64,000 bases of DNA from Massalongia carnosa (Eukaryota). Shown here piece after piece: positions 12,732 to 50,500 of the stretch. The translations under genes and the position numbers were made by a program. The stretch is from contig OZ287072.1 in the NCBI GenBank assembly GCA_965645245.1, positions 2,542,001 through 2,606,000 on the forward strand. The letters are read 5' to 3'. Below the pieces are notes generated by a model. The model saw only the letters and a list, made by a program, of their open reading frames with translations. It searched no databases and had not been told where the DNA came from. Positions within the stretch are counted from its first letter, which is position 1, and each line of letters opens with the position of its first letter.

Positions 12732-15700
12732 TTGGTTAATCAATACATAGTCATGGCCTCTACTTCAAACCCCCCAGTTGAGGTTTATAGGCAGGAACAA
12801 TACTGGCAGCATGAAGAACTTGATGAGACTGAGACTTCAATCCCTCCGCGTGATACGAATGAGCGAGTCAGGAGCTGGGAGACAGGAGACACACTTTCTG
12901 CCGGCCATTATCCTTACTCCATCGACGACAAGATCGTGTGAAAACCTGTCACATTGAAAGTACCCTGTCTAGCCTCTACGGCAGTTTTCTTACTAGTTTG
13001 GATTGGCATCCTTGAGTTTCTTTCTCAGATGTGCCTTCGAAATGACGGCATTGTTTTTGCCGCGTCACTGGATGCTTTTTCGAAAGCTGCTACCTTCTCA
13101 TCAACTTATCTTCCAACTATTGTTGCTATAATATTGAGCGTCATGTGGAGTTGGGTGGATTTGGATACCAAGAGGCTAGAGCCATATTTTCAGATGTCTA
13201 AACCAGGAGGAGCGTCGGCTGCTGATTCCATTCTATTGCACTATCCATTTGACTTCGTGGCCGTTGCCCCTGTGAAAGCCTTCAAGCAACGGTATTACAT
13301 CATAACCCTTCGCCGTCTGCCTCTGCTAATGCTTGCCTAAAGCCATTGGTCTGTCTTCTGCTCGGGTATGGTCACGACCATCATATTCTGGGGCATATCT
13401 CCTTTGCAGGGTGCCGTTTTCAATACGAGAATGGTGGAAAAGAAAAGTTCAGGATTGGGACATCTATACGGAGGACTCTCGTCTATCACAGAGCATGCTT
13501 TGGGATTAAATCTAAGCTTTATACCGAAAGCTTATGATTTTGTATGGATCAATCAAAGTCTCCCTCCATTACAACTTCGGATGCCGCCTAAATATCTTTC
13601 TTGATAGACGAGAATTTCGACAGTAGTTCTCCCAACAGCGGCTCTCCGAACAGGACTCTTATCGCGAGGACGTCCATGCTCAGTACAAGTATACAATGTT
13701 TGCCAGCCAGGGATTACAACACTAGCTCGCTTGAATTCGATACCATTAAACTTTCCAGCTCTTCGATGATCTACAATGTGGACGGTCAGTTTGGACGCAG
13801 TGGTAAAATGACGGTTTTCCCTACTTCTTGTTAGGATGATGAATATTGCTTTTGGTACGTTGGATATCAAGACGATATAGAAAATTCTTCATCAAGCATG
13901 AGCTGCCCGGTAAATTCATCGGGCTTGTATCTTGCTTTTATTGGATCTCCATTCGGAGAACACATTACAGCCGAATTTTGCCAAGCTAGCTATTGGATTC
14001 AAGATGTTATTCTCACAGTTGCAGAACATGACATGGCTGTTGTTTCCTCAACGCTACTCGCTTCACCAGTGAAGCTTAGCTATGATGACTTCAATCCGAC
14101 TAGCTTTCAATCTATACTATGGATAGGCAAACCAGATATCTCGACAAAATTTCCACCGAAGGTCGATCTCAGGGATGAAATACGTCATCTGGACATGAAC
14201 TGGAGACTTCACACTTTGAACATTAATCTTCAGGGCTCCTTTACGGCTGGTTTTGCTTGAATCAACGACCGATAATTTCCAAAGACTAAAAATTTCATTA
14301 GTAATCATTCAGAATTCGAACGGCGTTTGTTTTTCTTTGCAGTGTAGTCGGTGTGGGAAAGTATCAGAGCGACTCTCCTATCATCGAACCGATCAGTCAT
14401 GTCGATCGTCATTCCGGATCGTTTTCAATGAGATTTTCTCCCGCCCATTTTATCTTGGACCAATCACTGGCTTCATTTTTGTGATACTTCTTTTGGGAAT
14501 GATAGTTGCATTAATGACGCTGAAAATCTTAATCAAGTATCAAAATGGCCTTCCATACCTTATAAGAACGAGGTTGCTGTACAGGTTGTCCTTAGCTATG
14601 TTCCGGTGATATTCTCGACTTTTTTGGAACCGTATTGGATGCTTTTGAATCGGATGTTATGTCTTCTTCAGCCATTTGAAGAATTGAAAAGTTGTCGAGC
14701 CAAAGCCAAGCATTCCCTGGATTTACGTTACTCATCGCTACCTCCATCACTAGCTCTCTGGCGCGCTTTACGGGCAAAGCATCATTTATTGGCAGCAGTC
14801 TGTTCAATTTCACCCTTAGCTAATGTATTGACAGTTGGTCTGGGAGCACTTCTGAACCCAGACGCTGCATTTTCCGAGACTGATATGACTCTTAAAGCCA
14901 AAAGCAAGCCAGTCTTCAACTCAACCGCACTGGTAATAGCGTCGAGGGATACTAGCTTCCAAGATTTCTTCTATGTAACTGCAAATAACCTATCGGCGAA
15001 TACGAGTCTCCCTCCATGGACTTCCAAAGAGACGTACTTCCTACCAGCGGTCTTGGATATCAGTTATCCGGCCGAAGTCACTCTAAACACTTATGGGTTC
15101 CATGTTGGTCTCTCTTGTAATGAAGTTGCTGTCAATAAAGATATTCACCGAAGCCGAACTTTCTCATTCAATATAACCGTCATCAAACCAGACGGACGAA
15201 ACGTTGAATGCTACCTTAATCATTATGATTACGAAGAATCACAAATTGATCTATTCGGGCTTGAAGGATATGAGGATCTTACCCCAATTTTTGCGTATAA
15301 TGCAGATGCATCTGCTGATGACGCTGCTACATGTTACTCAACCTTGTCTGTCGTGTATCAGCGTGGGCTTGGAAAATCTTCCTCTAATGTTTCAGCTATC
15401 TTCACTACAACATCGAGTTTATGCCTTGTTTGTCAGCCTACTCTCGAGATTTCGAATTATTCCGTGCAGCTGTCACAGTCAGGCCATGTCATATCGTCAG
15501 TCCGCCAAAATCAACCATCAAATAACTTATCCGAGTACTTAGCTATACCGCAAAACGTCTCCGGTTTTTATCTTAATCCCAATTGGCTAATATCGCAGAA
15601 CTTCAGAGCTAATCAAGATGATTTGATGGAATATGCTCCTTTGCACAACGATTCATTTGCATCTCGATGGTTCCCGTATCTCGTATGCGTGATCTTGAGA

Positions 15701-16160
15701 TCCAGGGATACAGTCAATACTTCATTACCTGCACCATCCGCTTCTACAGTTATACCGGCAGTGTCTGCGTTGTATAGCCAGCTATCAGCTGCGATCATTT
15801 CATTGAATAGCGAGCTTTTTTCCCCCTTTCCAGCCTCCGAGGGCGTAACCATCTCCGCCACTATAAGAACCTCAGAAACGCGCGTTTTCATGTCCGATGT
15901 CATGTTCTACGTATGTAGCATCGTTCTAATCCTCGACGTGCTCGTTGCCATTGCGTACTACTGGTACCGGCCGCAGCAAATTCTGCCGTACATGCCGACG
16001 ACTATAGCCAGCCTAATATGCACATTCGAAGGCAGCAGTCTCGCAGCTGCAGGCGGAATATGGGATGCCTCATGGCTTTTTGGATTCGGCAAATTCACCG
16101 GTATGGACGGTAAGCTGAGAGTGGGCATCGAGAGGTAGCCATTTGTGCAGCCGTTACCTA
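12732..16160 (+). pseudogene. DUF3433-type multi-pass membrane protein pseudogene
   Basis: Two DUF3433-like repeats (YLPTIVAIILSVMWSWVDLDTKRLEPYFQMSKPGGASA..; FLEPYWMLLNRMLCLLQPFEEL..LDLRYSSLPP) broken into many ORFs by stops, frameshifts and an apparent internal deletion. Confidence 0.75.
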
Positions 16161-16459
16161 AGTGCCTCCAGCCAAGGGACGAGGATAAGGGTGTGAAGAA
16201 AGTGAAGAACATGAAGAATGTTAAAACGAGTTCTTCAACTCCTGATCATCAAGAACACGGCGTTAAAGTTCAAAAAAATGAAGATTTACGATACTCGAAC
16301 AGACTTCTTCCCCCCCCCCAAAAAAACAGAGCAATGTTAAAAGGCTTAAACAAAGTCAATTTTCGAAATCTCGAAACCTCATTTATTTATGTGAAAGACT
16401 ATTTAAAAAAAAATTGAAAAAAAAAGATTTAAACTTCATATTTAAAACCACAATTTCAC

Positions 16460-18163
16460 CATCGGTCCTCCTCCTTCTACACCATCGGTCCTCACCGTGG
16501 GGCGACCGTCAAACATATAGATTTGCTCCTATCTCTTCGCATCAAAACAATGCTAATTTAACGCGTTCACACGCGTCGCAGACGTACGTACGGAAGAGGA
16601 TACGAAGGCCAACCGCCGGGGGGTCGAATGCTCGCGTCCCTGCACCATACTTCTAAGGGTTCAAGTCCCTTCATGCAGTCATCAGCTGGAAGAAGATGTG
16701 GACCAAAGGAGCCGCATCATCCCCCACCCGGACACAGTCGACACGCGCTCTAGCTCCTGAGAGTTCAAGTCTCCCCATGCAGTCATCAGCTGGGATCAAC
16801 AGAACGCGTAAAGGCACCGGGGCGAATGCTGTCACCTCAAGAAAACTCCATCTCGGAGCAGAATAACAATATCCCATTTAACAGGCCTGGCCTGTTAAAC
16901 AAAATCGAGGAAAACACAGAGTCACAAAACACATAGTCATCAATCACACGTTGTACAAAGCACACAATCACAGCACACAGTCACAAACACACAGTCACAA
17001 AACACACAGTCACAAAACACACAGTCACAAATCAATAACACGTCCCTGTGAAGGAGGTTCTGCGGGGGCTCGTTAAGGCAGATCTGCACCCCGTTAATAT
17101 CGGAGTACATATTTTAAGAGGTTCAAGTCCTTTCTAGCAGTCATCAGCTGAAAATAATGCATTTTGACACGGGCATGGTGTGGATTTGACACGGGCAGAC
17201 CTCGATGGATCACAAAACGAATGAAAAGAGTTCAGCGGAACTTCGTTAATATTGTTCTCGAAGATCTCGTTAATAAGATTTTCATAGACCTCGTTAACAA
17301 CGTTCGATCATACTCTTAAAGGTTCAAGTCCTTTCATGCAGTCATCGGCTGAAAGCTAGAGACGTACGACACGGGTCAGCTATGTCTATCACACGGGTCT
17401 CCTTCGTCTACAACACGGAGCCCTCCGGCTGAAAGAAATAAAACATATAGACACATAGTGTAGGGTCACACCCTACACGATACAAGGGATTTGGGTTATG
17501 AAAACCATCCGATTGATGGCTACCGTGAGCAACACGGCCCGAACCGGAGTCGTACCGGGGATGGTAGAGGCAACCTAGTCATCAAATAGGACACCCTTGG
17601 GACAAGAAGAGGGCAATATACGAGGAACCCGTTAATTGATAACAGTCTAGGCCCTGAGCTAATAGACGAATTTCAAACGAGCACTCCTCCGAGTTGTCCT
17701 CGACTCGTTTTGGTTAGTAGAGACGGGAAATCGATACTATACTGCCTGGTCAGGAGCATAGTGGTCGAAATCCCTGCGAGACATGGTCGGTTCATAAACG
17801 GGAGACCTTTATGAATAACGCGAAGTGGGCATAAAAAACCCGTGAGGCGTGGTATGCAATGGCGGCCACCGTACGGAGACCGTCTGCATAGCCCGAGAGG
17901 ACAGTATGCGCATGTCGGTTTATATAGAGCAGGGAATGTCTATCTCGCTCGTAACGAGACCCCGTCGGTTCGCCAGCGCATGGGCTACGGCTAGACTCGC
18001 CCTTGATATATGCTTAAGGAGTAAACTGGGTTTGACCTGGGCGAAAGGGACGTCGTTCACCCCAATCGTAGAATTCATCAATAGTCTTGGGCCGTAAAAC
18101 GCACCAGTGAGATGAACGAAAACTGGGATAGAGGCTTCACGAAGGAGATGTCAACTCTATTTT
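16460..18163 (+). ncRNA. Retrocopy of a putative large structured non-coding RNA (identity unknown, possibly Pol III)
   Basis: No credible ORF; four GTTCAAGTC B-box/T-arm modules; many hairpins with GNRA/UNCG loops and nested long-range helices; ends in hairpin + TTTT at the LINE junction; no T5 run on + strand. Confidence 0.6.
16910..17031. repeat. ~15-bp C/A-rich tandem repeat (CACACAGTCACAAAA)n
   Basis: Four near-perfect and several degenerate copies. Confidence 0.85.
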
Positions 18164-18170
18164 ATCATTC

Positions 18171-21100
18171 TTAGAAAAGGCAAAGAGAACAAACTTTCGT
18201 CAAGAAATCAATAAGGCCACCGAAACGCCTCAGGGCGAGATGCTTAGGGGCAGTCCCCCCCCGACCGTCCCCCTGTGTAAATCTTTGCTAGTAAACAGCC
18301 ATTTCACTGCTCATCCAGGGTGCGTACAAGCTAGTAATGCAACTGCCAACAGCACATTAAACTCTTTTCGGTTTAAATCGTATGACGTATTTATTGCTAC
18401 TAATAATTACCCTACTCGGTCTGATAAAGCATACCCTCACCCTCACCCTCACCCTCATCCTCACCCTCACTTACCATTTGCCCTTGCCCTAACCCTTTGC
18501 CCTCTCTAAATCTCTCCTTCCACTTATGCTATACCTCATATTATATATTTTACTACTTCTCATCGCGATGAAGTTCGATTCCACTTCTTTGGATGCACGA
18601 AAGCAACATGCCATTGCCCTTCTGTCCTCACCTCACCTTCTTCCTCCGCAAGAGAATGAGTTATTTGCGTCTTGGAAGGAGGCAAAGACTCGTCTTCAAG
18701 ACTATGCCTTCATTCAAGGCTTCGCGTTGATCACAGAAACTCACGATAAGAAAAACCATTTAGTCGTATTAGACTACACACGCCACCACAAAAGAGTTAG
18801 AAACACTAGAAAAGTAAGGGAGGAAGACCGGATGCGAGCCAATACCAAAGTTTCGTTCAATGAGTGCCCTTATCGCCTCCGTCTCAAAAAAAAAACAAAG
18901 ACAATGCATGGAGACTAATAGTTACTAACTCCGAGCACAATCATGAAATGGTCACTGATCCCTTTGCATTCAGAGAACACCATAGTAGGGACCCTGATCG
19001 AACAGATGCCCTAGATCAAGGGAAGAGTCTCCGTGCATCGTCAACCCAATATGGCCAAGCAGCGAGAATATTAGGAACCCAAGGACTCCGTCTGTCGAGG
19101 AGCGATTATTATAATCTCGCTCATTCGGAGGGAGCTCACACGCCTGAAGAAGAGCTTCTTTTTGCCTTGGGCTCGTTGAAAGACAGGGGCTTTCATGTAC
19201 GGTGTAAGGAAAAATATATTGTTAAGAATAATGTGCGTGAGAGACGGGTGATAGAACAAATTTTTTTTTGCAATGCGGAGCAAATTAGGCTGGGTCGACG
19301 TTTCGTGGTGGTTTTCTATTAGAAACCGATGCAACGTTCAATACTAATAAATTGAACTTGCCTTTATCCGTTTTGGTTGGAATCACTAACACCGACCTTT
19401 CGTTTCCCGTCGCTTATTGCTACATAACTTAATCCTACCTCAGGCAGCGCCGCCTCCATCTCTTTATAGTCTTAGCCAAAACGTGCGCGTCAGTCAAATT
19501 CTCTCTACTTCCTCTGCAACAACGCGAAGGTCTCGGGGTGTGGCGAAGAAATCAAAGGCTCGGTTGGAGTTGAGATCTCAGCAAAAAGTCGAGAAATCAG
19601 TCAAACAGGCTAGGGCTCAAGCGGGAAAGGAAACGGCGATGAGAAAGGTGGTTAAAACTAGAAAAGATGATGTATCGCAATTGGCTGACGAGTTTTTGGA
19701 GTTGAAGTCATCGCAATAGGTAGATTTGTAGATGTTGAATACACTTAGTCAGTAACAGCAACATTATTAATACGTAGTTTAACTGCTAGCTTGTACGCAC
19801 CCTGGATGAGCAGTGAAATGGCTGTTTACTAGCAAAGATTTACACAGGGGGACGGTCGGGGGGGGACTGTCCCTAAGCATCTCGGCCTCAGGGACTATGG
19901 CGGCTAGCGAAATGGGCCAAAGACAAAAGTCATCAATCTAGAGAAGTATCCAAAATGCCGATGCTAAAATTCAATGACCAAGTAGCAGACACGTTTGACC
20001 AAAAAGCCGAAATGCTGAAAGGTGTCTTCTTTCCCGCACCACCACCGGCCGACCTAAGCGACATAGAAGGATCCTTCTATCCTACATCGCCGCACTGCCC
20101 AATAATCATCACCAAGTCAGAAGTATCGACGGCCCTGAGTCGGCTCAAGTCCGATAAGGCACCGGGCCCAGACGGCATATCTAACGGAATACTCAAAGCA
20201 TGCAGCGAAATAATTGTCGAACTACTAACACCTCTGTTTCAAGCGTGCGTCACACACTCGTACCACCCGCGGGCCTTCAAAATGGCAAACACCATAGCGC
20301 TGAAAAAATAGGCAAAGGAGACTATACCACGCCGAAAGCCTACCGACCAATTGCACTGCTCAACACGCTCAGTAAAGTTATGGAATCCATCATTGGATCG
20401 AAAATAACCTATCTAGCGGAAAAACACCGGCTCCTACCCGACACACAGATGGGAGCAAGGAAGGGCAGATCCACAGAGTCAGCACTGGAACTGCTAACTG
20501 AACAGGTTCGCACGATTTGGGGACAGGGAAAAGACAAAGTAGCCACACTGCTAAGCATGGACGTCGCCGGCGCGTTCGATACGGTATCTCATCAACGACT
20601 AACGCACAACCTACGGAAAAGAAAAATTCCAAAATGGATCACCGACTGGTTAAACAGCTTTCTGAGCGATCGAAGCACCACTTTAGCAATAAATCGAAAA
20701 GTCACCGGGCGGTTTGCGGTAAGAACGGGTATCCCGCAGGGCTCTCCCCTGTCATCAATTCTTTACCTATTTTACAATGCAGATCTATTGGAAATATGTG
20801 ATCGACCAGGCAAAAATACAAGTGCCATAGGATTCGTAGACGACGCAAACATTTTGGCATATGGAAAAAGCACCGAGGAAAACTGCAAAACTCTAGAGGC
20901 AATACACAGACAATGTGAGACGTGGGCTTCCCGGCACGGGTCCGTATTCGCTCCGACGAAGTACGAACTCATACACTTGTCCAGAAATCCCAAAAGATTC
21001 AACATGACTGCATCCATCAATATTGCTAGCACCGAAATTGAACCTAAAACGGACATCAGAGTATTGGGCCTACAAATCGACACCAAATTGAAATGGGGAC

Positions 21101-22388
21101 CGCACGTTCGCAAAACGCAAGAGAAAATGGTCAAAAAATCCATGGCATTGACAAAAATTTCCACATCAACCTGGGGTGCCACCTTCGCCAAGGCAAGGCA
21201 GGTGTACAGTGCCGTGGTGCGTCCGGCCATGACATATGGGTCAACCGTATGGCACATGCCCAAAGAAGTCAAAAAGTCAAAAACGTCAACGAGCAAGCTC
21301 TCCGTCATGCAAAACAATTGCCTTCGCACCATTGCCTTCGCACCATAGCCGGTGCCTTTAAAGCCACTCCCATCTCAGTACTAGAAGCAGAGACATTCAT
21401 AACGCCCATAGACACGCATCTCGACATGCTACATGCACAGGCAAGGCACCGGCTCCGAGCCGGAGGCCAATTGAAGATCATATCCTCCGCATGCAACAAA
21501 ATAGCTGACAAACTTCGAGGCAAGGCAGGTCGCAAACGACTTCAAAAGCCCACCCCGGGAGAGCTGAAACACATCTGGGCCAAAAGCCTACTGATCGACT
21601 CAAAAATAGTTCAACCATCAAAGGCACACCCACCATGGTTCGAAGTCTACCCGGCGTGGCACCGTGAAGCTACCGTTGCGGCAACGGCCCGACACAAGCA
21701 GATGCAAACAATCAAAACACGACAAATGAAGGTCTGGAACGACTCGTGGTGCGCATATCAAAATCGCGCGTCATCGAACCCTCCATAGCACAATCAGTCC
21801 CACTGAGCAAAAAACGGCTGATAATACACACCAGCTAAAAAAGGCAGAAATCGCTCTAACAACACAAATCCGCACTGGCAAGATCGGGTTAGCTGACTTC
21901 CTCTACAAGCGACGGGTGCCCTCCGTCACCTCACCGGCCTTCTCATGTGGCTGGCACAGACAAACTCCAGAACATGTAATCATGTTCTGCAGACTTATTG
22001 ACAATAGAGAACAGATGTTTCGCGCCGCCGGCACGAGCGACTATCAGCAGCTGACCAAATCATCAAAAACTCTGAAGATACTAATTGCTTGGCTAATGAA
22101 AACAGGCTTATTGAATCAATTCTCACTAGCATCAACATTATTGTAAAATCAACAATAGTTGAACCTTTCTTTCTTTCTTCTCTTTTCACAAGGCATTACA
22201 GTTCCCACACGTCTTTTGCACTACGTCTCCCGCCCGACGTCGACCCGTAGTCACATCGGACGGGTATCAAGGGACATGATTTTTACACCTGTGAAAGGTT
22301 TTCCATGTAACATAACTTAGATAGCTTTGCCCGCATGGGCCGGCCTACGGCCGGTGTCATATCGGAATATGAATACATCATCATCATC
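18171..22388 (+). mobile_element. Tad1-clade LINE copy 1, 5'-truncated ORF2 (RT + C-terminal CCHC) with frameshifts
   Basis: KAKRTNFRQE..PQG|LWRLAKWAK joins across the MULE; KAPGPDG, YRPIALLNTLSK, GIPQGSPLS, FVDD, CGWHRQTPEHVIMFC; 3' hairpin CCGGCCTACGGCCGG and (ATC)n tail. Confidence 0.95.
18236..19884 (+). mobile_element. Mutator (MULE) element 1, internally deleted, inserted into the LINE
   Basis: 99-bp TIRs (18236-18334, 19786-19884); 9-bp TSD GCCTCAGGG (18227-18235, 19885-19893); transposase relic with FAR1-like region (CPYRL..HNH), ETDATFNTNKLNLPL..FPVAYC, then a jump to the C-terminus. Confidence 0.95.
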
Positions 22389-22675
22389 AAAACCACAATT
22401 TCACTTTTCTGTAATTTGCTTGTAATTATTAACAGTTTTGACGAAGCTGGTGAGAAGAGTTTTCAAAATTTTGATGAGATGTTTACTTATTGGTGCTGGC
22501 GCAAAAGGTGGTTGGGATGCAAAAGAAGTTGAACACGAGTACGTGCTGTTCGATCAATCTTTCATGTCATGCAATGCAGCGCTTCTTAACAGCAGACATT
22601 AAGATCAATTGCGAGAAAAGTGTTAACAAGATCTTTTGCGACGAACACATCTATGGAAAACAGCGATTAACCGTG

Positions 22676-24000
22676 TTAGAGAGCCAGAAACATCTTTACA
22701 ATGTTTTTCTTGATGTCTTCCCACTCTGAGCAACATCGCTCAGCACCTTTGAAGTGCTTACTAGCAGAAAGACCCTCCTTCGCAATGCGGAACAAGCATC
22801 TCGCAAATCGATACTGCGCGTCGTATGCCATCTTCACCCATTTCAGTCCCGCTTCGTCTTCGAAGATGTGCTTGAGTTGCTGTTGCTCCGACGTCTTTGG
22901 CATATCGTTCGCGCCCGAACACTCATATGGCCAAGTGCCCAAGTGATTAGAGTCCACATACGTGATGGTCGTTTCTGTTGTCATCCCAGAGCCACCACGG
23001 CGGTTCGCAAGCCACGACGCTGGGGGCGAAGACGGCTTCATCCCAATCCAGGATGCCTGTGATGGACAGGGAGCCGCTGTTTGATACTTGAGCCATAATG
23101 TTGGGTTGGTGCATGTCGGGTGTAAACACACCAGCAGTATCGATTTGGCGTATGACTTTGAGCATCGAATCGAATAGTTCAACTATATGATCTGGTTTAC
23201 CTGAGTTGAAGTCTAGAGCGTCTTGTCGCTAACAGCTTAGATGGCTTTCGTAAAATGTGAGGATAGATTCATGAGGCTCTTGAGGACTGGTGCTTGCAGA
23301 CGAAGTGACTATAGATCTATCCAGTAACTGTCCATTGCGCCGTTCTTTGAGTTCCAATGGGAGTATCTTGAAAGGTTTACCGACCGGCGTTGTTTCGAGA
23401 AAACCAGATACCGAAGATTCGAGCGTCAGCATGGTTCTCTGTATGTGGCCGAATTCTTGGGCGAATGTGCATCGTTGCTGATGATTGAGGTCATTCCAAA
23501 TGACCTTCAGATCGAAGCCCGGGATATGATGTTGGATCACGGACGGCTACTCCAGCGGATTTTGGGTGGTGAAGTCTTTCGCAAATATGAGTGGAACTAG
23601 CAGCGATGTATGTTGACGCACATAGTCAAGGATCGCAATAGAACGATCTTGTCGGGTATCATTGTGGGGTCGAGGCGTGCGCAACATCAGCTCACGATTC
23701 CCAAGACCGGATGACACCGGCGCTGTTAATGGAGTGATGCGGTTATAGTCACCTCCCTTGACCCGGTTGATGACAGGCACATCGGGTGCAGGCACAAGAG
23801 AGTGCAAAAAGCGATTCGCGCGGAGAAATTTCGCTGCCTTACCGCTTAATAGGCTGTTCTTGCGAATAGCAGAAGTGGGCCAAAGTTGCTGGCATAAGAC
23901 GAGGACGCGATCCTGGAAGCTGGGCCAGGGTTCCTGTTCTTCATATATGATCGTCGACGACTCAGAGCCGCAATCGGACTTTACGTCCGAGGAGGCTCGA
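22676..24000 (-). pseudogene. APH/choline-kinase-like phosphotransferase pseudogene
   Basis: STIIYEEQEPWPSFQDRVLVLCQQLWP, GGDYNRI, LMLRTPR, DMHQPNIM, ITGILDWDEAVFAP..PPWWLW across several broken ORFs. Confidence 0.75.
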
Positions 24001-32986: not shown

Positions 32987-34529
32987 CGAGTAGATTCGGG
33001 ACAGACCCCATCTGGCAGACCCCTCGTAAAGTTCTACTGCTTATTAGGACTAGCTTAAGCCTCACCCTCACACTAAATTAATAGTCCATCTACTAATGCA
33101 ACGTCCCCCCGCAAGCTTCATATACCCAGTCACTTGCAACATTACTTTGCTGTAGCCAATTCAAACATCACACGTAGCTAGCCTCGGATTATTTGATGAG
33201 GGGTAATCATCCCATATACGCTGCGGGAGAGGGAGGGGCGGAGCCGGAAGAGGATAAGGAAGAGGATAAGGAGGAGGTATGGGGGAGGGTGAGGATGAGA
33301 TGGAAGAGGAGGATGAGGAGGAGATGGGAGAGGAGGATGAGCAGGAGGTGAGAAGAAGGAAAGGCGAAGGGGGAGAAGTGAAGAAGGACGGTGATAGATA
33401 TCGCCGCAGTGGAGTTGATATGATGCAATCTGCAGCATTTGAGTCAATGGATTTGCACAAATCAATGGAAAATTCATATCGAGATGAGGAGTATGCTCGA
33501 GCATACGTAGCAAACAGCGCCAAATTCAATCAACAATGGCTGGAAAGGGAGTCGGCTAGATCTCTTATCCCAACAACTTTCCCTGATGAAATCCGACCGA
33601 AGGAAAACCTCAGGTGGAAAAAGGGAGGAAGTCGTCGGCGTGCTTACACTGGCCGCGAGGCAGCTGAGGCAGATGAGGCCAATCAGCGACGTGCTAGGTT
33701 TAGGGACTCGATTGAACAAGGGAGAAGGCGACGGCATGATAAACTGCGTGAAAGCGATGAAAACGAGAGTGTGATTAGCGATGGTAAAAACCCACGATAT
33801 AAGCAAATCGACGCAACGCGGCTAACATATGATGTAGTAGATTTGACTGAAGATGCGGTCATTGTCTCCGACGACGATGACCTGCATTATGTAGACACTC
33901 AGCCGATTCCCGATCCTTCTACGAGTCTCACACTTCCTTCGAATGACAACGATGCATCTTCAACGTGTTCCGACTCGTTTGAAGATATTGATAAAGTACT
34001 GACGAAACATAGCCAAAAAGTCTCATCTCAAACGGCCCCGTCCCTTTATAATCTTAGGCAAAACCTCCGCCTCAGTCAGTTGCCTGTTACTTCGTCTGCC
34101 ACAACGCGAAGGTCTCGGGGTGTAGCCAAAAGCTCTGTTGGAGTTGGAGTCTCAGCGAAAGGCTAAGCAAGCAGATAAACAGGCTAGGGCCGAAGCGAAG
34201 AAGCAGGCGGCAGCTATGAAGTTTGCTAGGACTATGAAGCCTAGAAAGGAGGAGGTTTCGCAACTGATTGATGAGTTTTCAGAGTTGAGGTCATCGCAAT
34301 GAGTTGTATATATTAGTAATGAAACAGTAGAGTGTAATAGGTGTGACTTTTTCATACAGTCAATCTGGATATAACGACTTATCAGCTAGGTATATGAAGC
34401 TTGCGGGGGGGACATTGCATTAGTAGATGGACTATGAATTTAGTGTGAGGGTGAGGCTTAAGCTAGTCCTAATAAGCAGTAGAACTTTACGAGGGGTCTG
34501 CCAGATGGGGTCTGTCCCGAATCTACTCG
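32987..34529 (+). mobile_element. Mutator-derived element 2 (non-autonomous, keeps only the transposase C-terminus)
   Basis: ~140-bp TIRs (32987-~33126, ~34389-34529) starting CGAG like element 1; C-terminus TTRRSRGVAK..EVSQLIDEFSELRSSQ homologous to 19440-19719; flanks lack a TSD. Confidence 0.88.
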
Positions 34530-38787: not shown

Positions 38788-41700
38788 ATGGGCTTACGGG
38801 TTTTATATCCATCAAAAGACGCTGGGAAGTCGGAGGTCATCAAGGCTGAGTGAGCCTTTATACATCGCCGCTCCTGTAACATACCGATATACTTACGTCT
38901 TCTACTCAGTATCGTTGCGGTTCATGGCCTCAATGGAGACCCGAAGAACACTTGGACGAGCCGTCAGACGAATGCCTTCTGGCTCAAAGACTTCCTTCCA
39001 CACGACGTACCTAATGCTCGGGTCATGACATTTGGATACAATGCTGATGCGGCATTCGGGAACACCACTGCAGATATCATAGATCATGCAAGGAGTTTGC
39101 TTAGCGGTCTGATTGATAAGCGCGAGGAAGATGATGTGGGTTGCCGATATTCATTAGATCCTGAAGACGCTAAGGCTAAGATATTTCTTAGGAGCTGCGC
39201 CGTCCTATTATATTTGTCGGACATTCGCTCGGCGGAATAGTGATTAAACAAGTCAGTGCTAAGTTTGATCAAGAGGCGTGTGTCTAATGTTGCGTAATCC
39301 AGGCGTTGTTTCAGGCAAAACTTGAGCATCGATACAGCAGCATCAGCGAGTCCACAATCGGGATTGTGTTTCTGGGAACTCCTCATCGGGGAAGCGAAAA
39401 AGCAGCATACGGAAAGGTTCTTGCAACTCTTGCTACGGCTGTTCTGAACAAATCATCGCCACGCCTTGTCAATGCTTTGCAAGTGAACAGTGAGGCGTTG
39501 ATGTCACTTACGACCAACTTTAGATTTCAGCTACCAAAATATCAGGTGTATAGCTTCTACGAGATGAAGCCAATGAAGATGCTTACTACTTTGGTAAGCA
39601 CCAAGATGAGAACTTTGCTTATAAATATAAACTTGACCAACAGAACAATTTTTACTAGATCGTGGAAAAACATTCTGCACTGTTAGAGATCGACGGAGAA
39701 GAACAGATTCCAGTGGACGCAAACCACGAAGAGATGTGCAAGTTCATGGAGCGCGAGGACGACGTATATGAGAAGCTTTTCAAGAGGGTTCGTAGGATGA
39801 TAAAGCAACAAGATAGCGTTCCTTCAAATAAATCCTGTACGTAGATTCAACCAAAGTACTCATTTAAAATGATTTTGCATATATGTTTTGCTCATGTGAA
39901 ACTAGATCTTTGCAGTTTCTCGTCCTATAACAAGCATTACTGTGTTCCTCTCAACCTAAGTACGATATTTACTGGCCGTGATGACTTAATTCAAAACATC
40001 TCTGAAGGGTGTTTACCCTTCGACAATGAAAAAATGCCTTCTAAGCAGAAAAGGTTTGTTTTGTTTGGCCTAGGAGGCTCAGGAAAGACTCAAGCCTGTC
40101 TTAAATTCGCTCAAGATTATCGGGAAAGGTAAGTGGTTAAACCCGAGAGCTTTCGGGCTTGTGTCTGTTACAGGACTGATGCTGAAGGTTAGGTTTTGGG
40201 GTATCTTCTGGATCGATGCGAGTAGCTACATTACAGCTCAACAAGGGTTTTTGGAAATATCTCGAACATGTGGAGTGAAAGAGGACCCTAAGGCTATAAG
40301 ACAATGGTTGTCGAATATTCAAGATCCCTGGCTGCTGATAATTGACAACGCCGATGACCCGTCTCTAGACGTCTCCGACTTCTTTCCGACAGGCAATAGA
40401 GGCTCCATCCTGCTCACTACTCGCAATCCTGACTGTAAGATCCACTCAACTGTAGGCTCGTGCAAGCTCGGACAACTGAACATGGACGAGGCCGTGACGC
40501 TTCTGTTGAAAGCTGCTGGGGCGGAAGATACAGCTGATGAGGATGCACGAAGGAAGGCAAAGCCTGTAATCCAGACGTTGGGCTTTTTGGCGCTTGCAAT
40601 CACTCAAGCCGGCGCATATATACGGCGGGGTCTCTGTAGCATCGAAGAATACTGTGACGTGTACACCCGTCGTCGGCAAAAACTGCTAAGGCATCGATCA
40701 GTTCAAGCGAGCTCCGATTATAAATATAGCGTGTACACGACCTGGGAGATCTCCATCGAAGCAATCGAGAAGAAGCGTGACGAGACTTCTCATAATGCTA
40801 TGGAACTCCTTCGAATATTTAGCTTCTTGCATTACGATGGGATTACCGAAGACATATTTGAGCAGGCGTGGAGAAATAACTATAAGAGAGAAGACTCGTT
40901 TCAAGACATAATTCATATGTTTTACATACAACCCCAACAAAAAGCAGGAGATTGGGATCCAACAATGATTCGAGAAGCGGCAGATCTTCTTGCGTCGTTC
41001 TCACTTATAAATTTAGGTAGAGAGAGAGATACTAAAAGGATTGATGAAACGGGGCGTCGCATGTCAATGCATCCATTGGTACATGTGTGGGCCAGAGACC
41101 GACTCTCGGAAGATCTTCAGAGATGTTCCTGGATAATAACCAGTTCCACCCTAGCTGCTACCATGTCTTGGGAATATGCGCTGACCGACTATCGCTTCCG
41201 ACGGTCTTTGCTGCCTCATATCGAGTCTTGCATAAGTCTTTGCAGAGATAAGCCGTTTCTTGACGAATACTCAGAGCTCAATCGTGTTAGTGTGGCGGAG
41301 GGGTTTGTGTTGGCGTTTCGTGAGAATGGCCGGCTGCAGGAGGCAATGGAATTGGGAGAAAAGGTGTTGAAGGCACGTCAGAGGACGCAGGGAAGCGAAC
41401 ATCCGGACACTCTCAGGACGATGAACAGTCTTGCAATTAGTCATAGCGATTTAGGACGCAAAAAGGAGGCAATGGAATTGCAAGAAAAGGTGTTGGAGGC
41501 ACGTCAGAGGACGCTGGGAAGCGAACATCCGGACACTCTCAGGACGATGAACAGTCTTGCAATTAGTCATAGCGATTTAGGACGCAAACAGGAGGCAATG
41601 GAATTGAAAGAAACGGTGTTGAAGGCACATCAGAGGACGCTAGGAAGCGAACATCCGGACACTCTCAGGACGATGAACAATCTTGCAAATAGTTATAGCG

Positions 41701-42911
41701 ATTTAGGACGCGAACAGGAGGCAATGGAATTGAACGAAACAGTGTTGAAGGCACGTCAGAGGACGCTGGGAAGCGAACATCCGGACACTCTCATAACGAT
41801 GAACAATCTTGCAAATAGTTATAGCGATTTAGGACGCAAACAGGAGGCAATGGAATTGAACGAAACAGTGTTGAAGGCACATCAGAGGACGCTAGGAAGC
41901 GAACATCCGGACACTCTCAGGACGATGAACAATCTTGCAAATAGTTATAGCGATTTAGGACGCAAACAGGAGTCAATGGAATTGAACGAAACAGTGTTGA
42001 AGGCACGTCAGAGGACGCAGGGAAGCGAACATCCGGACACTCTTTATACGATGAACAGTCTTGCAATTAATTATAGCGATTTAGGACGCAAACAGGAGGC
42101 AATGGAAGTGCAAGAAACGGTGTTGGAGGCACGTCAGAGGACGCTGGGAAGCGAACATCCGGACACTCTCAGAACGATGAATAGTCTTGCAATTAGTCAT
42201 AGCGATTTAGGACGCAAACAGGATGCAATGGAATTGAACGAAACGGTGTTGAAGGCACGTCAGAGGACGCTGGGAAGCGAACATCCGGACACTCTCGGGA
42301 CAATGAACAATCTTGCAAATAGTTATAGCGATTTAGGACGCAAACAGGGGGCAATGGAATTGAACGAAACAGTGTTGAAGGTACGTCAGAGGACGCTAGG
42401 AAGTGAACATCCGGACACTCTCTGTACGATGAACAATCTTGCAAATAGTTATAGCGATTTAGGACGCAAACAGGAGGCAATGGAATTGAAAGAAAAGGTG
42501 TTGAAGGCATGTCAGCGGACGCTAGGAAGCGAACATCCGGACACTCTTTATACGATGAACAGTCTTGCAATTAATTATAGTGATTTAGGACGCATACAGG
42601 AGGCAATGGAATTGCAAGAAACGGTGTTGGAGGCACGTCAGAGGACGCTGGGAAGCGAACATCCGGACACTCTCAGGACGATGAACAATCTTGCAAATAG
42701 TTATAGCGATTTAGGACGCAAACAGGAGGCAATGGAATTGAACGAAACAGTGTTGAAGGCACGTCAGAGGACGCTGGGAAGCGAACATCCGGACACTCTC
42801 ATAACGATGAACAATCTTGCAAATAGTTATAGAGATTTAGGACGCAAACAGGAGGCACTGGAATTGGATGAAAAGGTGTTGAAGGCACGTCAGAGGACGC
42901 TGGGAAGCTAA
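38788..42911 (+). CDS. Fungal NLR: SesB-like alpha/beta-hydrolase, NB-ARC, TPR repeats (multi-exon)
   Basis: Spliced N-terminus DIVAVHGLNGD..FWLKDFLP..ARVMTFGYNA..IIFVGHSLGGIVIKQ..IVFLGTPHRGS..VDANHEEMCKF; P-loop GLGGSGKT, WLLIIDNADD, LTTRN, LALAITQAG, MHPLVH; twelve 42-aa HPDTL repeats. Confidence 0.92.
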
Positions 42912-43075
42912 CATCCGGACACTCTTAAAGTGATGGACGACCTTGCTGTTAGTTATTATGGTTTTTGACGTAAACAGGAGGCAGTAAATTTGATAGAAGA
43001 GACGCTGAAAGCAAGTCAAAAGACGTTGGGAAGTGAATATTCAACTACCCTTCGTGCGATGAACAATCTTGCGGA
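41335..43075 (+). repeat. 126-bp tandem array encoding TPR units (12 translated, ~2 beyond a premature stop)
   Basis: Near-identical GGAAGCGAACATCCGGACACTCTC.. units every 126 bp. Confidence 0.95.
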
Positions 43076-43489: not shown

Positions 43490-43908
43490 ATGAGGTCAAC
43501 GCCGCCGGTCATCAACCACCTTCTCCCGTTTTAATCATGCAAGGTCGTAGAATAATGCAGAACTGGTTCCAAGAAGGGCTGCCCACGGGGACTCTGATTG
43601 AAGTATCAGAAAGTGGGTACATCACCGATGAAATAGCCATTGAAGTTTTGAAGCACTTCATTGCGAATACAAACTTGGGGCCTACAAAGCAGTGGAAATT
43701 GATGCTCATAGATAATCATAGGACTCATTGCACCCCTGAGTTTATAAAGCTTGCCAGTTAAAATCACATTCGCCCTCTCCCCCTGATACCACATCTGACT
43801 CATTGTATGCAACCCCTTGATATGGGCGTATTTCAACCCTATAAGCATTGGCATGATAAGGCTATCCAAGATGTCCTTGCAGAGTTCAACACTGAGAATA
43901 ATGAGAAT
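43490..43908 (+). pseudogene. Fot1/pogo DDE_1 transposase fragment
   Basis: SESGYITDEIAIEVLKHF..LMLIDNHRTH..*..HLTHCMQPLDMGVFQPYK. A probable element end with doubled CTACGCAGACCGCTT lies at 46681-47221. Confidence 0.8.
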
Positions 43909-44079
43909 GATGAGGGTGATGAGGGTGATGAGGGTGATGAGGGTGATGAGGGTGATGAGGGTGATGAGGGTGATGAGGGTGATGAGGGTGATGAGGGTGA
44001 TGAGGGTGATGAGGGTGATGAGGGTGATGAGGGTGATGAGGGTGATGAGGGTGATGAGGGTGATGAGGGTGATGAGGGT
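43909..44079. repeat. (GATGAGGGT)19 perfect minisatellite
   Basis: 171 bp of perfect 9-mers, read as (DEG)n in the transposase frame. Confidence 0.97.
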
Positions 44080-44157
44080 GATGAGGATGAGCAGTTTAAC
44101 TTTTATCAAGGGGGGTTATCGTCAGACTAGGAGTTAATATTAGAACGCGCAATTGAT

Positions 44158-46369
44158 GAAGATGATGATGATGTATTCATACTCCGATATGACACCGGCC
44201 GTAGGCCGGCCCATGCGGGCAAAGCTATCTAAGTTATGTTACATGGAAAACCTTTCACAGGTGTAAAAACCATGTCCCTTGATACCCATCCGATGTGACT
44301 ACGGGTCGACGTCGGGCGGGAGAGGCAGTGCAAAAGACGTGTGGGAACTGTAATGCCTTGTGAAAAGAGAAGAAAGAAAGAAAGGTTCAACTATTGTTGA
44401 TTTTACAATAATGTTGATGCTAGTGAGAATTGATTCAATAAGCCTGTTTTCATTAGCCAAGCAGTTAGTATCTTCAGAGTTTTTGATGATTTGGTCAGCT
44501 GCTGATAGTCGCTCGTGCCGGCGGCGCGAAACATCTGTTCTCTATTGTCAATAAGTCAGCAGAACATGATTACATGTTCTGGAGTTTGTCTGGGCCAGCC
44601 ACATGAGCAGGCCGGTGAGGTGACGGAGGGCACCCGTCGCTTGTAGAGGAAGTCAGCTAACCCGATCTTGCCAGTGCGGATTTGAGTTGTTAGAGCGCTT
44701 TCTGCCTTTTTTAGCGGCGTGTGTATTTTCAGCCGTTTTTTGCTCAGTGGGACTGATTGTGCTATGGAGGGTTCGATGACGCGATTTTGATATGCGCACC
44801 ACGAATCGTTCCAGACCTTCATTTGTCGTGCTTTGATTGTTTGCATCTGCTTGTGTCGGGCCGTTGCCGCAACGGTAGCTTCGCGGTGCCATGCCGGGTA
44901 GACTTCGAACCATGGTGGGTGTGCCTTTGGTGGTTGAACTATTTTTGAGTCGATCAGTAGGCTTTTGGCCCAGATGTGTTTCAGCTCTCCCGGGGTGGGC
45001 TTTTGAAGTCGTTTGCGACCTGCCTTGCCTCGAAGTTTGTCAGCTATTTTGTTGCATGCGGAGGATATGATCTTCAATTGGCCTCCGGCTCGGAGCCGGT
45101 GCCTTGCCTGTGCTTGTAGCATGTCGAGATGCGTGTCTATGGGCGCTATGAATGTCTCTGCTTCTAGTATTGAGATGGGAGTGGCTTTAAAGGCACCGGC
45201 TATGGTGCGAAGGCACTTGTTTTGCATGACGGAGAGCTTGCTCGTTGACGTTTTTGACTTTTTGACTTCTTTGGGCATGTGCCATACGGTTGACCCATAT
45301 GTCATGGCCGGACGCACCACGGCACTGTACACCTGCCTTGCCTTGGCGAAGGTGGCACCCCAGGTTGATGTGGAAATTTTTGTCAATGCCATGGATTGTT
45401 TGACCATTTTCTCCTGCGTTTTGCGAACGTGCGGTCCCCATTTCACTTTGGTGTCGATTTGTAGGCCCAATACTCTGATGTCCGTTTTAGGTTCAATTTC
45501 GGTGCTAGCAATATTGATGGATGCAGTCATGTTGAATCTTTTGGGATTTCTGGACAAGTGTATGAGTTCGTACTTCGTCGGAGCGAATACGGACCCGTGC
45601 CGGGAAGCCCACGTCTCACATTGTCTGTGTATTGCCTCTAGAGTTTTGCAGTTTTCCTCGGTGCTTTTTCCATATGCCAAAATGTTTGCGTCGTCTACGA
45701 ATCCTATGGCACTTGTGTTTTTGCCTGGTCGATCACATATTTCCAATAGATCTGCATTGTAAAATAGGTAAAGAATGGATGACAGGGGAGAGCCCTGCGG
45801 GATAACCATTCTTACCGCAAACCGCCCGGTGACTTTTCGATTTATTGCTAAAGTGGTGCTTCGATCGCTCAGAAAGCTATTTAACCAGTCGGTGATCCAT
45901 TTTGGAATTTTTCTTTTCCGTAGGTTGTGGGTTAGTCGTTGATGTGATACCGTATCGAACGCGCCGGCGACGTCCATGCTTAGCAGTGTGGCTACTTTGT
46001 CTTTTCCCTGTCCCCAGATCGTGTGAACCTGTTCAGCTAGCAGTTCCAGTGCTGACTCTGTGGATCTGCCCTTCCTTGCTCCCATCTGTGTGTCGGGTAG
46101 GAGCCGGTGTTTTTCCGCCAGATAGGTTATTTTCGATCCAATGATGGATTCCATAACTTTACTGAGCGTGTTGAGTAGTGCAATTGGTCGGTAGGCTTTC
46201 GGCGTGGTATAGTCTCCTTTGCCTATTTTTTTCAGCGCTATTGTGTTTGCCATTTTGAAGGCCCGCGGGTGGTACGAGTGTGTGACGCACGCCTGAAACA
46301 GAGGTGTTAGTAGTTCGACAAGTATTTCGCTGCATGCTTTGAGTATTCTGTTAGATATGCCGTCTGGGT
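44158..46369 (-). mobile_element. Tad1-clade LINE copy 2, 5'-truncated
   Basis: Very similar to copy 1; TSD AACGCGCAATTGAT at 44144-44157 and 46370-46383; (ATC)n tail; RT frame open from PDGISNRIL to CSCGWPRQTPEHVIMFC. Confidence 0.96.
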
Positions 46370-47527: not shown

Positions 47528-50500
47528 TGTTGAATATCCAATTCCTACCAGCACAATGAATACCTATCAGTACGATGAACATAGCACCTACGGCTGTCCT
47601 AGTTGGACAGATCATCTACGGAAACCGTAGATGCCGCATTAGGCTTACTCCTAAGATAAGATAAGATCACCTCGCTTAGAAGGGGGTGACCAGTAATAGG
47701 AAAAGATTGCTGCCTAGCAACTCTTCATCCTTAACATCACGGTCATACATACCTTTATTATTACATAGCCATATAGCCATAGTCATATACCTATTTCAAC
47801 AGGTTATGAGCCCGGAAGGGTGCTATCGATTTAAACTAATCGAAACTTTTAATCCGCAGCTTCGCAGTGCAATCAGCTAAGCATCGTTCCTATTCAATGA
47901 ATCGTAGACACATGACTAAAATCTTTCTGTGTCTTTAGAAACGATCCCTTAAATCACATCAATCAGTTCTCTCTTCTGTACACAGCGATTTCTTGTCAGA
48001 AGCACAAAAACTGCGTGTTAGAAAGAGCATGAACACATTGATCGTACTACACTCAAGCCCTCGGACACCAAAGAGCTTGCTAAGCTCGATGGTCGAAGGC
48101 ACTCAAGTCCTCGGACACCAAAGAGCTTACTAAGCTCGATAATCGAAGGCACTCAAGTCCTCGGACACCAAAGAGCTTGCTAAGCTCGATGGTCGAAGGC
48201 ACTCAAGTCCTCGGACAGCAAAGAGCTTGCTAAGCTCGATGGTCGAAGGCACCCAAGTCCTCGGACACCAGAAGAGCTTGCTATGCTCGCTGGTCGAAGG
48301 CACTTAAGTCCTCGGACACCAGAAGAGCTTGCTAAGCTCGATGGTCGAAGGCACCCAAGTCCTCGGACACCAGAAGAGCTTGCTATGCTCGCTGGTCGAA
48401 GGCACTTAAGTCCTCGGACACCAAAGAGCTTGCTAAGCTCGCTGGTCGAAGGCACTCAAGTCCTCGGACACCAAAAGAGCTTGCTAAGCTCGATGGTCGA
48501 AGGCACTCAAGTCCTCGGACACCAAAAGAGCTTGCTATGCTCGATGGTCGAAGGCACTCAAGTCCTCGGACACCAAAGAGCTTGCTAAGCTCGATGGTCG
48601 AAGGCACTCAAGTCCTCGGACAGCAAAGAGCTTGCTAAGCTCGATGGTCGAAGGCACTCAAGTCCTCGGACAGCAAAGAGCTTGCTAAGCTCGATGGTCG
48701 AAGGCGCTCAAGTCCTCGGACACCAAAGAGCCCGCTAAGCTCGATGGTCGAAGGCGCTCAAGTCCTCGGACACCAAAGAGCCCGCTAAGCTCGATGGTCG
48801 AAGGCACCGAAGTCCTCGGACACCAAAGAGCTCGCTAAGCTCGATGGTCGAAGGCAAAAACAAGTATATTGCTGGCCCTGAGCGCCCAATTGGTTCAAAA
48901 ATCATCAAAGCGTCAGTTCACCCGTGGTTGAGTTCTGGACACGCAAAAAATACAAAATCCCTCGGACATCAAAGAGCTTAGTAAACTCATTGATCGAAGG
49001 CACAAAGACATTTCTTTTTGGCAATTATGCCTCCTTAAGGCACTAGATGAGATTGTGCGGCAGTTGCCTCTTATTATTTAACCGGCCTAAGGCCGGTTAA
49101 ATCAAATTGGAATAACCCTGCGCTCAATTTGCTTTTGGTCAATTGGACCCTTGAAAAAGCCGGAGTTGAAATTCTCATCATGGCAAACAAGCATGTTAAG
49201 CAAACAGGTTTCTCTGTTAAGACATCAAAGTGGACACTGGCTAAGGAGGGACTGTTTTTTCCTTGTCTATAAGAAAGGTCACAGATCCACATTCTTTCAG
49301 TCACTACTAAGTTTCTCGCCTTGTTCAATTGCTCCCCATTCTCCCATTATGTCTATCATAGATACGTCACATCTTTTGGAGAAAGCCGAAAGATATTCGG
49401 CATGGGCAAGCTATACGAAGGGCGTTCTGCTCAAGAACAACTGCGAAGGAGCCATTCTGGAGAATCAATCAGAAATCACCGCTGAAACCATCAAGGAAGG
49501 TTTAATACAAGCAGGCTTCGACGCCAAAGGTCTTTCAGTCAGCATCTTGGTAAAAGAACTGCGTGACTAGAAGAATAGACAGAAGGCCGAGATGACCAAG
49601 GCTATAGGAATCATTCACGGATTAGTTGCGGAGTGCCATTACAGCCTCATCGACAACAAGAATGTGGCAGAAATGTGGAAAATCCTGAAGGATAGATTCC
49701 AAGATATAGCACCAATGAGCATCAGCGACATCATTCTGAAGGTTAGTTCCAAGAAGATGACCGACTTCGAGACGACCAGTCTATACTGTGCATATTACGA
49801 GAGCGCTTTAAACAAGATTAAAGGAATGCTGGACGACAAGGCCAAAGTGGATGTGCATACCGTGGAGTTTATGCTTAAGGGAATGATGCTGGGTAACACC
49901 AGACGTCTATTCCCCATTGATAGCCCAACTTCGACGAGATTGAACATACGAAACCACAAACCTGTCGGAAGCAATGAAGACCATTATTGCTTATTATGTC
50001 AACATGAAAATCACCAAGGCACTTCATATCAGCACACCTGACTCAAGAGGTCGAGCCCCATCAGGGAACTGCACCTTCTCTTAATGTGTCAAGAGAAAGA
50101 ACACTCGTCATTGGCTAGATACCTGTTTGCAGAAGTTTCCACAGTTAAAAAGACATAGAAGTTCGCTCGAATCCGGAAGAGCAAAGGAACAAAAGACTAC
50201 CTCGTTAGAAACGAAGGCGGACTTATCTCATACATCAACCAACATTTCAACGACCATTGACACTCCAGATTTGAGGATGCATTTGAGCAAAGTGGACGAG
50301 GATACCTATCAAGGACTGGACGTCATTATCTGTTAAATCAAAACTCACTACATGGCATGGAAGGCTTGGTCATCTCAACATAGCAACGTGTCGAAAATAT
50401 CTGAAAACGCTAGACATAACGTACGATGACGATATCAACCACGGTTGGTTTTGCCATGCATGCGAAATGGGAAAAGCCAAAAAGATATACAACCGAACAC

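Follow-up and report, generated by a model that had tools for sequence, protein, structure and literature searches.

The question raised by this locus is how a long piece of non-coding DNA and the 3' part of a long interspersed nuclear element (LINE) came to share one target-site duplication (TSD). The locus lies in a 64-kb stretch of the Massalongia carnosa contig OZ287072.1 (the window; all coordinates are positions within it), in which a 1715-nt non-coding segment, here called X (16460–18174, forward strand), is followed directly by a LINE that starts inside its second open reading frame (ORF2). A comparable arrangement, the MINE chimeras of Magnaporthe grisea/oryzae, was reportedly described by Fudal et al. 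in 2005. According to Gogvadze et al. (2007), 31 MINEs combine the full-length non-coding WEIRD sequence with the LINE MGL truncated at 28 different sites, have TSDs of 10–20 bp and show no microhomology at the junction (PMC2104539). We propose that the unit 16460–22388 is probably a chimeric retroelement of the MINE type with X as its WEIRD-like head, and in the following we describe the evidence for this, the weaknesses of the reading and the alternatives.

Anatomy of the inserted unit

The 16-mer AAAACCACAATTTCAC is present in exactly two copies in the window, at 16444–16459 and 22389–22404. Two matches were also obtained when up to two mismatches were tolerated, and none of 100 dinucleotide shuffles gave two. 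The last three nucleotides (CAC) of the left copy could equally open the terminal repeat unit of X, and the right copy stands immediately 3' of an (ATC)4 LINE tail (22377–22388, forward strand). Between the two copies follow, in this order, X, the first piece of the 5'-truncated ORF2 (18175–18235, forward strand), which begins within the codon of about residue 352 in an ORF2 of about 1120 aa, a nested non-autonomous DNA transposon of 1649 bp resembling Mutator-like elements (MULEs; 18236–19884), the remaining ORF2 with the reverse transcriptase (RT) domain and the C-terminal region in several frames (19894–22146, forward strand; 95% identical to P0001, the best database relative of this LINE), the LINE 3' untranslated region (UTR; 22147–22376, forward strand; 97% identical to a second LINE copy in the window) and the tail, whose type is the same in the second copy.

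The initial annotation of this DNA had placed an exact 16-bp direct repeat around 16460–22388, with the right repeat copy directly after the (ATC)n tail of the LINE, and both statements are borne out. It described the unit as X plus a LINE part, which is correct, but overlooked the nested MULE-like element. An independent TSD of X, named there as an observation that would speak against a joint insertion, was also looked for; the only TSD encloses X and the LINE together. With one exact 16-bp TSD and an (ATC)4 tail around the whole unit, the insertion falls within the 10–20 bp known for the TSDs of MINE-type chimeras.

X and its relatives

Also in agreement with the initial annotation, X is a non-coding segment of 1.7 kb that is not part of the LINE. 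All six reading frames contain between 17 and 33 stops, by which a protein-coding function was rejected, tblastn with nine relatives of the LINE ORF2 found no similarity within 16460–18174, no Rfam match was obtained at E ≤ 1 in the window from 16000 to 23000 or in six relatives of X (see below), and ARAGORN found no tRNA in the window region and in seven metagenome loci. Short interspersed nuclear elements (SINEs) have a tRNA-, 5S- or 7SL-derived head, a promoter for RNA polymerase III and a length of about 80–500 nt. Such a head was not found in X, which has no tRNA, no Rfam match and a length of 1715 nt. The likeness of the TTCAAGT hairpin of X to a tRNA T-arm or B box is only a local one, and the T runs (no T5 and five T4, with about 0.6 T5 expected by chance) are uninformative on RNA polymerase III.

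X is made up of a 5' terminal tandem repeat, one to four T-loop modules, a conserved structured 3' domain of about 700 nt and a precisely defined 3' end (...TTCTTRG). In the window, all of these parts are on the forward strand. The 5' terminal tandem repeat, consisting of CACCATCGGTCCTCCTCCTTCTA and part of a second unit, is located at 16457–16502, and the unit count differs between copies: in Logan contigs the number of the 23-nt units varies, as can be seen from 'goes back 37' joints and from loose ends before 16457. The T-loop hairpin module is found at 16655–16688, where a 5-bp stem with the loop TTCAAGT precedes the CAGTCATCAGCTG hairpin and an outer stem encloses both, and again at 16759–16792, 17117–17150 and 17318–17351. 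This 30-nt module, with its four copies, is the most conserved motif of X. A 15-nt tandem repeat (AAAACACACAGTCAC, 8.2 copies) occupies 16911–17031, and the conserved structured 3' domain with about 30 helices extends from 17466 to 18174, its core (17778–17919) being most conserved and its end forming a single-stranded tail ...TTTTATCATTCTTAG.

Using the 30-nt module motif for a metagenome scan we obtained seven contigs (L001–L007). Six of them carry X-like sequence with 67–77% identity over blocks in 17455–18090 and one to three modules each; the exception, L002, has a single hairpin module in common with X and was not included when X was aligned. L001, L004 and L007 likewise begin in terminal tandem repeats, the sequence of which is unlike that of the window. 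Relatives of X also occur in sequencing runs under several organism labels, the module motif had no matches in collections of genome contigs and viral contigs, and a protein scan of viral contigs found nothing. These sequences suggest that the X family is conserved across several environmental fungi.

Two observations concern the ends of X and of the LINEs. The single-stranded 3' tail of X (18160–18174) has ATCAT and the LINE tail in the window is (ATC)n, while L007 has TAATTC in its X tail and (AATC)n as LINE tail, and the X end of L005 has TCAATC. This likeness of the X tail unit to the tail repeat of the resident LINE could be due to chance or to tail mimicry.

The X–LINE junction

We compared the window with Logan contigs from four public runs carrying X (X1, X2, X3 and X6). 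The boundary is 18174|18175, where X contigs stop matching and LINE contigs start. An 8164-nt contig from run X6 matches 16490–18174 with 38 mismatches and 20 gap letters and continues thereafter with unrelated sequence, a 618-nt contig from run X2 matches 17642–18174 and has 85 letters beyond, and the LINE contigs of both runs read KSNDKKQKII upstream of 18175 (translated by eye), as in the N-terminal part of P0001. As the X contigs of these two runs stop matching at 18174 and their LINE contigs match from 18175, the sequence TTTTATCATTCTTAG is the 3' end of X. The initial annotation had assigned a TTTT and an ATCATTC linker to this region, with the junction at about 18163 and the LINE start at about 18171. 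Logan contigs and relatives of X correct this, since there is no linker and the LINE begins with the base after X.

The junction is direct, showing no poly(A), filler or extended homology in the window or in L005, and the 3' end of X at the junctions reads TTCTTAG, TTCTTGG or TCCTTGG in the window, L001, L004, L005 and L007. Four of the six X-bearing metagenome contigs extend past the end of X, and in all four LINE coding sequence follows directly after a TTCTTGG or TCCTTGG terminus; L003 ends exactly at the X terminus and L006 before it, so that no junction could be obtained from either. In L004 X is followed by ORF2 from about residue 685 and in L001 by ORF2 from about residue 717. L007 enters at about residue 712 and continues through the end of ORF2, the 3' UTR and the (AATC)n tail, and in L005 (...CCTTGG|PFFKECQV...) the partner is ORF1 at residue 302 of its 499-aa relative P0121. 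One further joint in an X1 contig, 18171→20540, corresponds to ORF2 residue ~587 and is weak evidence, as it comes from one contig only, whose shorter side has 25 letters. Including the window (ORF2 ~352), all six junctions with an identified LINE partner are different, as had been predicted for other chimeras in the initial annotation. On the X side it is always the homologous 3' end that is joined (6 of 6), and none of the six lies at the start of ORF1.

A splice site as the reason for the fixed end of X was considered and rejected, because TGG is not the end of a splice acceptor and the sequence that follows X in X6 does not begin with GT. The X6 letters after X resemble the end of the ORF2 endonuclease domain, by eye only.

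X is a high-copy repeat with a private junction in the window

The summed contig depth in run X1 is 1.5–4.8 × 10^5 for X and 0.9–1.9 × 10^3 for the flanks, with flank contigs showing 0–1 mismatches to the window, and over the runs X1, X2 and X3 the depth of X is 100–300 times that of the flanks; summed contig depths are not copy numbers, but they show many variant copies. In run X1, 12,239 contig pieces fall on the repeat-rich stretch. In the source organism, X is thus repeated in high copy number. At position 18134 the letter of the window has a depth of 807 out of 258,763 in X1, which is about the single-copy level, and 23 X1 contigs with the other letter at this position stop matching 41 nt further on, at 18174. 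The X–LINE junction of the window is private and has single-copy depth.

RNA structure of X

For the analysis of the 3' domain we aligned 17466–18174 of the window with the six relatives. RNAalifold predicted 185 pairs, 74 of them with compensatory double changes, compared to 31.1 ± 3.7 in column shuffles (none of 500 reached 74), from an alignment of only seven sequences in two or three clusters that also served to derive the structure. Sliding the partners by 1–3 columns left 11–18 compensatory pairs and lowered the share of paired cells from 94.7% to 36–45%. The variable columns of the alignment have no three-base periodicity (0.59, 0.55, 0.54), and each frame contains at least six stops in all seven sequences. 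The repeated module folds into a small three-way junction consisting of a covarying outer stem, a covarying 5-bp stem and an invariant CAGU-CAUCA-GCUG hairpin, and over its 16 instances each of the five T-stem pairs forms in 14–16. Its loop UUCAAGU is T-loop-like. A covariance model of the core was searched against the window, L002 and six distant LINE loci, and its only match was the core of the window itself. Because 74 of 185 pairs covary and the hairpin module covaries over 16 instances, we read X as a functional RNA, the model predicting a structured molecule and not junk.

Proposed origin and alternative explanations

The combination of a fixed X 3' end with a variable LINE truncation, as in MINE and U6-L1 chimeras, makes template switching the best reading of the unit. 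Starting at the nicked target on the (ATC)n tail of the LINE RNA, the LINE RT would have copied about 2.56 kb to a point inside ORF2 (now 18175). From there it would have switched, without homology, to a second RNA, X, entering at the 3' end of X and reading through to the 5' end. Integration of the resulting cDNA would have produced the single 16-bp TSD, and the MULE-like transposon would have landed later in the LINE part. X itself would supply the promoter. The switch itself we infer; a chimeric retrotranscript made in this way by the LINE RT had been suggested in the initial annotation and gains support from the one TSD, the fixed end of X and the six different LINE positions.

Several points weigh against this reading. 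A free X RNA ending at 18174 would have to exist; none of the public runs listed with X is an RNA run, which speaks neither for nor against its expression. The switch-site consensus GCC*A/U, reported for MGL (PMC2104539), is not evident here, the window LINE reading ...TCC|A, and the LINE part begins with C at all four metagenome junctions. Furthermore, the independent junctions of L001, L004 and L007, from different metagenomes, lie within ~32 residues or ~100 nt (685, 712, 717), which may reflect a hot spot of RT pausing or RNA breakage, or remnants of older composites. This cluster is located just after the YxDD motif of ORF2. Finally, the high-depth X contig of X2 (128 against ~5 in the flanks) continues unbroken for 85 letters past the end of X, which suggests that the X2 genome has one dominant successor of X, which could be the native 5' region of a LINE or a chimera that has been amplified.

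This last observation leads to the first alternative, in which X is the native 5' UTR of a full-length LINE family, comprising a structured RNA domain and a promoter, and the chimeras are internal deletions, in which the RT, for instance, jumped back within the same RNA molecule to the 3' edge of the structured domain, so that ORF1 and part of ORF2 were lost. Such an origin would agree with the single 85-nt successor in X2, with the terminal tandem units and repeated modules, which are typical of LINE 5' regions, and with the fact that X, wherever its neighbour was identified, lies next to a LINE and is accompanied by related LINEs in several organisms. Nevertheless we consider it unlikely. 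The six junctions all lie inside coding sequence at different places and not at the ORF1 start, and the breakpoint of X is always its exact 3' end, whereas random internal deletions would not fix one breakpoint. For MINE, the only precedent that has been studied, WEIRD does not belong to the LINE MGL (PMC2104539). Six distant LINE loci with ORF1 and ORF2 (L008–L013), found in contigs of metagenome-assembled genomes (MAGs), show no X by blastn, motif search or the covariance model, which is a weak argument as they are only 31–39% identical and too distant to decide. Contigs with a complete ORF2 (1096–1152 aa) are mostly 5.0–5.8 kb long, but assemblers break at the end of X anyway, so their length is no argument against a native 5' UTR.

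It could also be that no switch took place at this insertion and that the window holds the daughter of an older X–LINE master chimera, transcribed from a promoter in X and mobilised through the LINE 3' end. The chimera indeed retains the 3' UTR and the tail of the LINE, which are required if it is to be recognised in trans, and the Magnaporthe MINEs are transcribed and include six pairs that share a junction (PMC2104539). We regard such a master copy as rather improbable, since the window variant at 18134 is single-copy (807) in X1 and the 23 other X contigs stop at 18174. For the same reason no family with the junction of the window is visible in X1, although contigs can hide rare copies.

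It is very unlikely that X is the cDNA of a single-copy cellular housekeeping RNA gene captured by chance, as U6 was for L1. Its structure and sequence are conserved across taxa, and WEIRD was interpreted in this way in 2007 (PMC2104539). On the other hand, X has no Rfam family, exists in very many diverged copies (the 12,239 contig pieces of X1), carries terminal tandem repeats like those of transposable elements, and every identified copy is attached to a LINE. A site-specific LINE of the R1/R2 type, inserted with variable 5' truncation just behind X in a longer repeat, would likewise produce a fixed X position with variable LINE truncation, but this was rejected as next to impossible, because the 16-bp TSD encloses X and the LINE and not the LINE alone, the LINE tail is followed by single-copy flank without a repeat of the X end (likewise after the (AATC)n tail of L007), and the second LINE copy sits at an unrelated site.

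Returning to a template switch onto X RNA, X has the appearance of a retroelement module, parasitic or co-evolving, that is conserved across fungi, and not that of a cellular housekeeping RNA. The initial annotation had left open whether the source was an abundant cellular or a parasitic RNA; of the two, the parasitic option is favoured here. Going further, we tentatively suggest that X might represent a conserved class of structured RNA retroelements not described before, a '5' hitch-hiker' lacking a LINE-like 3' end, which would spread only by RT jumps from the 5' end of (often broken) LINE RNA onto the precisely defined 3' end of X. Its ~700-nt domain could recruit the LINE ribonucleoprotein and define or regenerate the X 3' end through self-cleavage or RNase cleavage of X–LINE transcripts at ...TTCTTRG|, and its 5' modules could act as a promoter for dead truncated LINEs. 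This possibility is doubtful at present, but if true, it would explain why Magnaporthe has no solo WEIRD gene.

Comparison with known systems

The likeness to MINE consists in a full-length non-coding head of ~1–2 kb fused directly to a LINE with variable 5' truncation, a LINE tail and one TSD, and in a head that is seen only attached to a LINE, as for WEIRD and for every identified copy of X. WEIRD has a length of 1.1 kb (1113 nt), and for it no solo copy in the genome and no relatives in other genomes were reported (PMC2104539). In contrast, X is 1715 nt long, has relatives in six metagenome contigs, a covarying structure of ~700 nt and T-loop modules, and its copy number appears to be far above that of the 31 MINEs. 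Two WEIRD primers (PMC3978060) gave no match to X at up to three mismatches, a weak test that covers only the primers. Compared by these two primers only, X is apparently a second head family, unrelated to WEIRD.

Three further systems have to be considered. In the chimeras of U6 or other small nuclear RNAs with L1 in mammals, a captured RNA with a fixed 3' end is joined to a variably 5'-truncated LINE within one TSD. X shares the fixed 3' end on a variably truncated LINE with one TSD around both parts, but it is 1.7 kb long, is itself repeated and LINE-associated and is no small nuclear or small nucleolar RNA according to Rfam. Hominid SVA elements and SINEs are non-coding, depend on LINE proteins and have a 3' end that the LINE recognises. 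The X chimera also has a non-coding head and a LINE-recognisable 3' end, whereas its LINE part is long, recently coding and different in each lineage, with no fixed short tail. Because each lineage has a different LINE piece, the association of X with LINEs has been re-made repeatedly and not inherited. Structured or repeated LINE 5' UTRs are known as well, such as the protein-binding 5' RNA of R2 and the monomers of mouse L1, and these are contiguous with the start of their own ORF. X resembles them in its repeated 5' modules and the conserved RNA structure 5' of a LINE, but it abuts internal ORF positions in all six identified cases.

A literature search for fungal MINE-like or composite LINE chimeras found none beyond Magnaporthe. 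The mechanism and the architecture are already known from MINE and U6-L1. What is new is a head family that several fungi have conserved and that has been fused anew to the resident LINE again and again, as well as a large covarying RNA domain with T-loop modules that is absent from Rfam, and the apparently high copy number of X. From 2005–2007 on, MINE and WEIRD have been a single-species curiosity with a head RNA of unexplained origin, and the same architecture is now found in an unrelated fungal genome. In place of the chance capture of a cellular RNA, one can now test the hypothesis that the head is a dedicated RNA parasite or partner which depends on the LINE. The region 17466–18174 with its core 17778–17919 is a concrete RNA for structural and 3'-end studies, and the chimeras offer a natural system for template jumping by reverse transcriptases of retrotransposons without long terminal repeats (non-LTR). 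Standard annotation of transposable elements would wrongly split such a repeat into an 'unknown repeat' and a 'LINE fragment'.

The LINE part and the second LINE copy

The LINE part of the unit belongs to the non-LTR retrotransposons with an apurinic/apyrimidinic-type endonuclease (APE), as it has an RT, a simple-repeat tail and a TSD, and its relatives have the APE endonuclease and an ORF1 with CCHC motifs. A 387-aa ORF at 20185–21348 is an RVT_1 reverse transcriptase (Pfam, E = 7e-30). The full-length relative P0002 (1120 aa, 80% identical) contains endonuclease and RT domains, full-length ORF2 relatives carry PF03372, PF14529 and PF00078, and the ORF1 relative P0121 (499 aa) has CCHC knuckles. 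In tblastn the LINE of the window begins at residue ~12 of P0001, which is residue ~352 of P0002. The LINE is probably Tad1/I-like. Its ORF2 is frameshifted over at least four frames, and since it is split in this way, the copy is dead.

The second copy of the same LINE, at 44161–46368 on the reverse strand, is a plain 5'-truncated insertion without an X head, 97% identical to 20167–22388. It has its own TSD of 11–14 bp, (ATC)AATTGCGCGTT, from which it follows that the LINE family of the window makes TSDs. Directly beside its insertion site the sequence (TGATGAGGG) is repeated 20 times with 99% matches (43908–44090). With respect to the distant loci L008–L013, these are eukaryotic, fungal-type non-LTR elements whose contigs bear the label of bacterial MAGs or genomes, one element lying inside a 6.65-Mb 'chromosome' record, and such fungal-type LINEs in bacterial-labelled records are probably due to contamination or mis-binning.

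The nested transposon

The element in the LINE part has terminal inverted repeats of about 100 bp (107-bp inverted repeat at 18228–18334 and 19786–19892, 97% identical) and a 9-bp TSD, GCCTCAGGG, at 18227–18235 and 19885–19893. The empty form of its site (joint 18226→19885, 9 ambiguous letters) was found in all four runs. The nested element was inserted after the retrotransposition event. Long inverted repeats and a 9-bp TSD are Mutator-like features, but it has no transposase, and its only Pfam match is an AFT/WRKY-like one below threshold (18.5 bits, cut-off 21.6). On these sequence features it could at best be a non-autonomous MULE-like derivative. It contains an internal (ACCCTC)6 at 18433–18470, is itself high-copy in the four runs, and its interior (19456–19717) is 72% identical to 34038–34300 of the window.

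The surrounding locus

The chimera sits in the 3' flank of an open frame of 568 aa (14432–16138) that contains a DUF3433 domain (E = 1.7e-19) and ends about 300 bp upstream of the insertion. A contig from X2, a run with flanks identical to the window, departs from it at 16425, which is 18 nt before the TSD, and continues with 255 letters of unrelated sequence. At this position the locus is structurally polymorphic. An X3 contig begins 13 letters before 22389 without a match to the LINE tail. Both contigs were considered as candidates for the empty site, and neither is readable as such.

Further downstream in the window, a 126-bp unit is repeated 12.6 times in tandem at 41337–42925 (92% matches). 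The unit corresponds to 42 codons, and the array looks like the highly regular TPR-type repeats of fungal NLR-like genes. In another array, at 48050–48856, a 50-bp unit is repeated 16 times in tandem (94% matches), and a higher-order period of 152 bp is superimposed.

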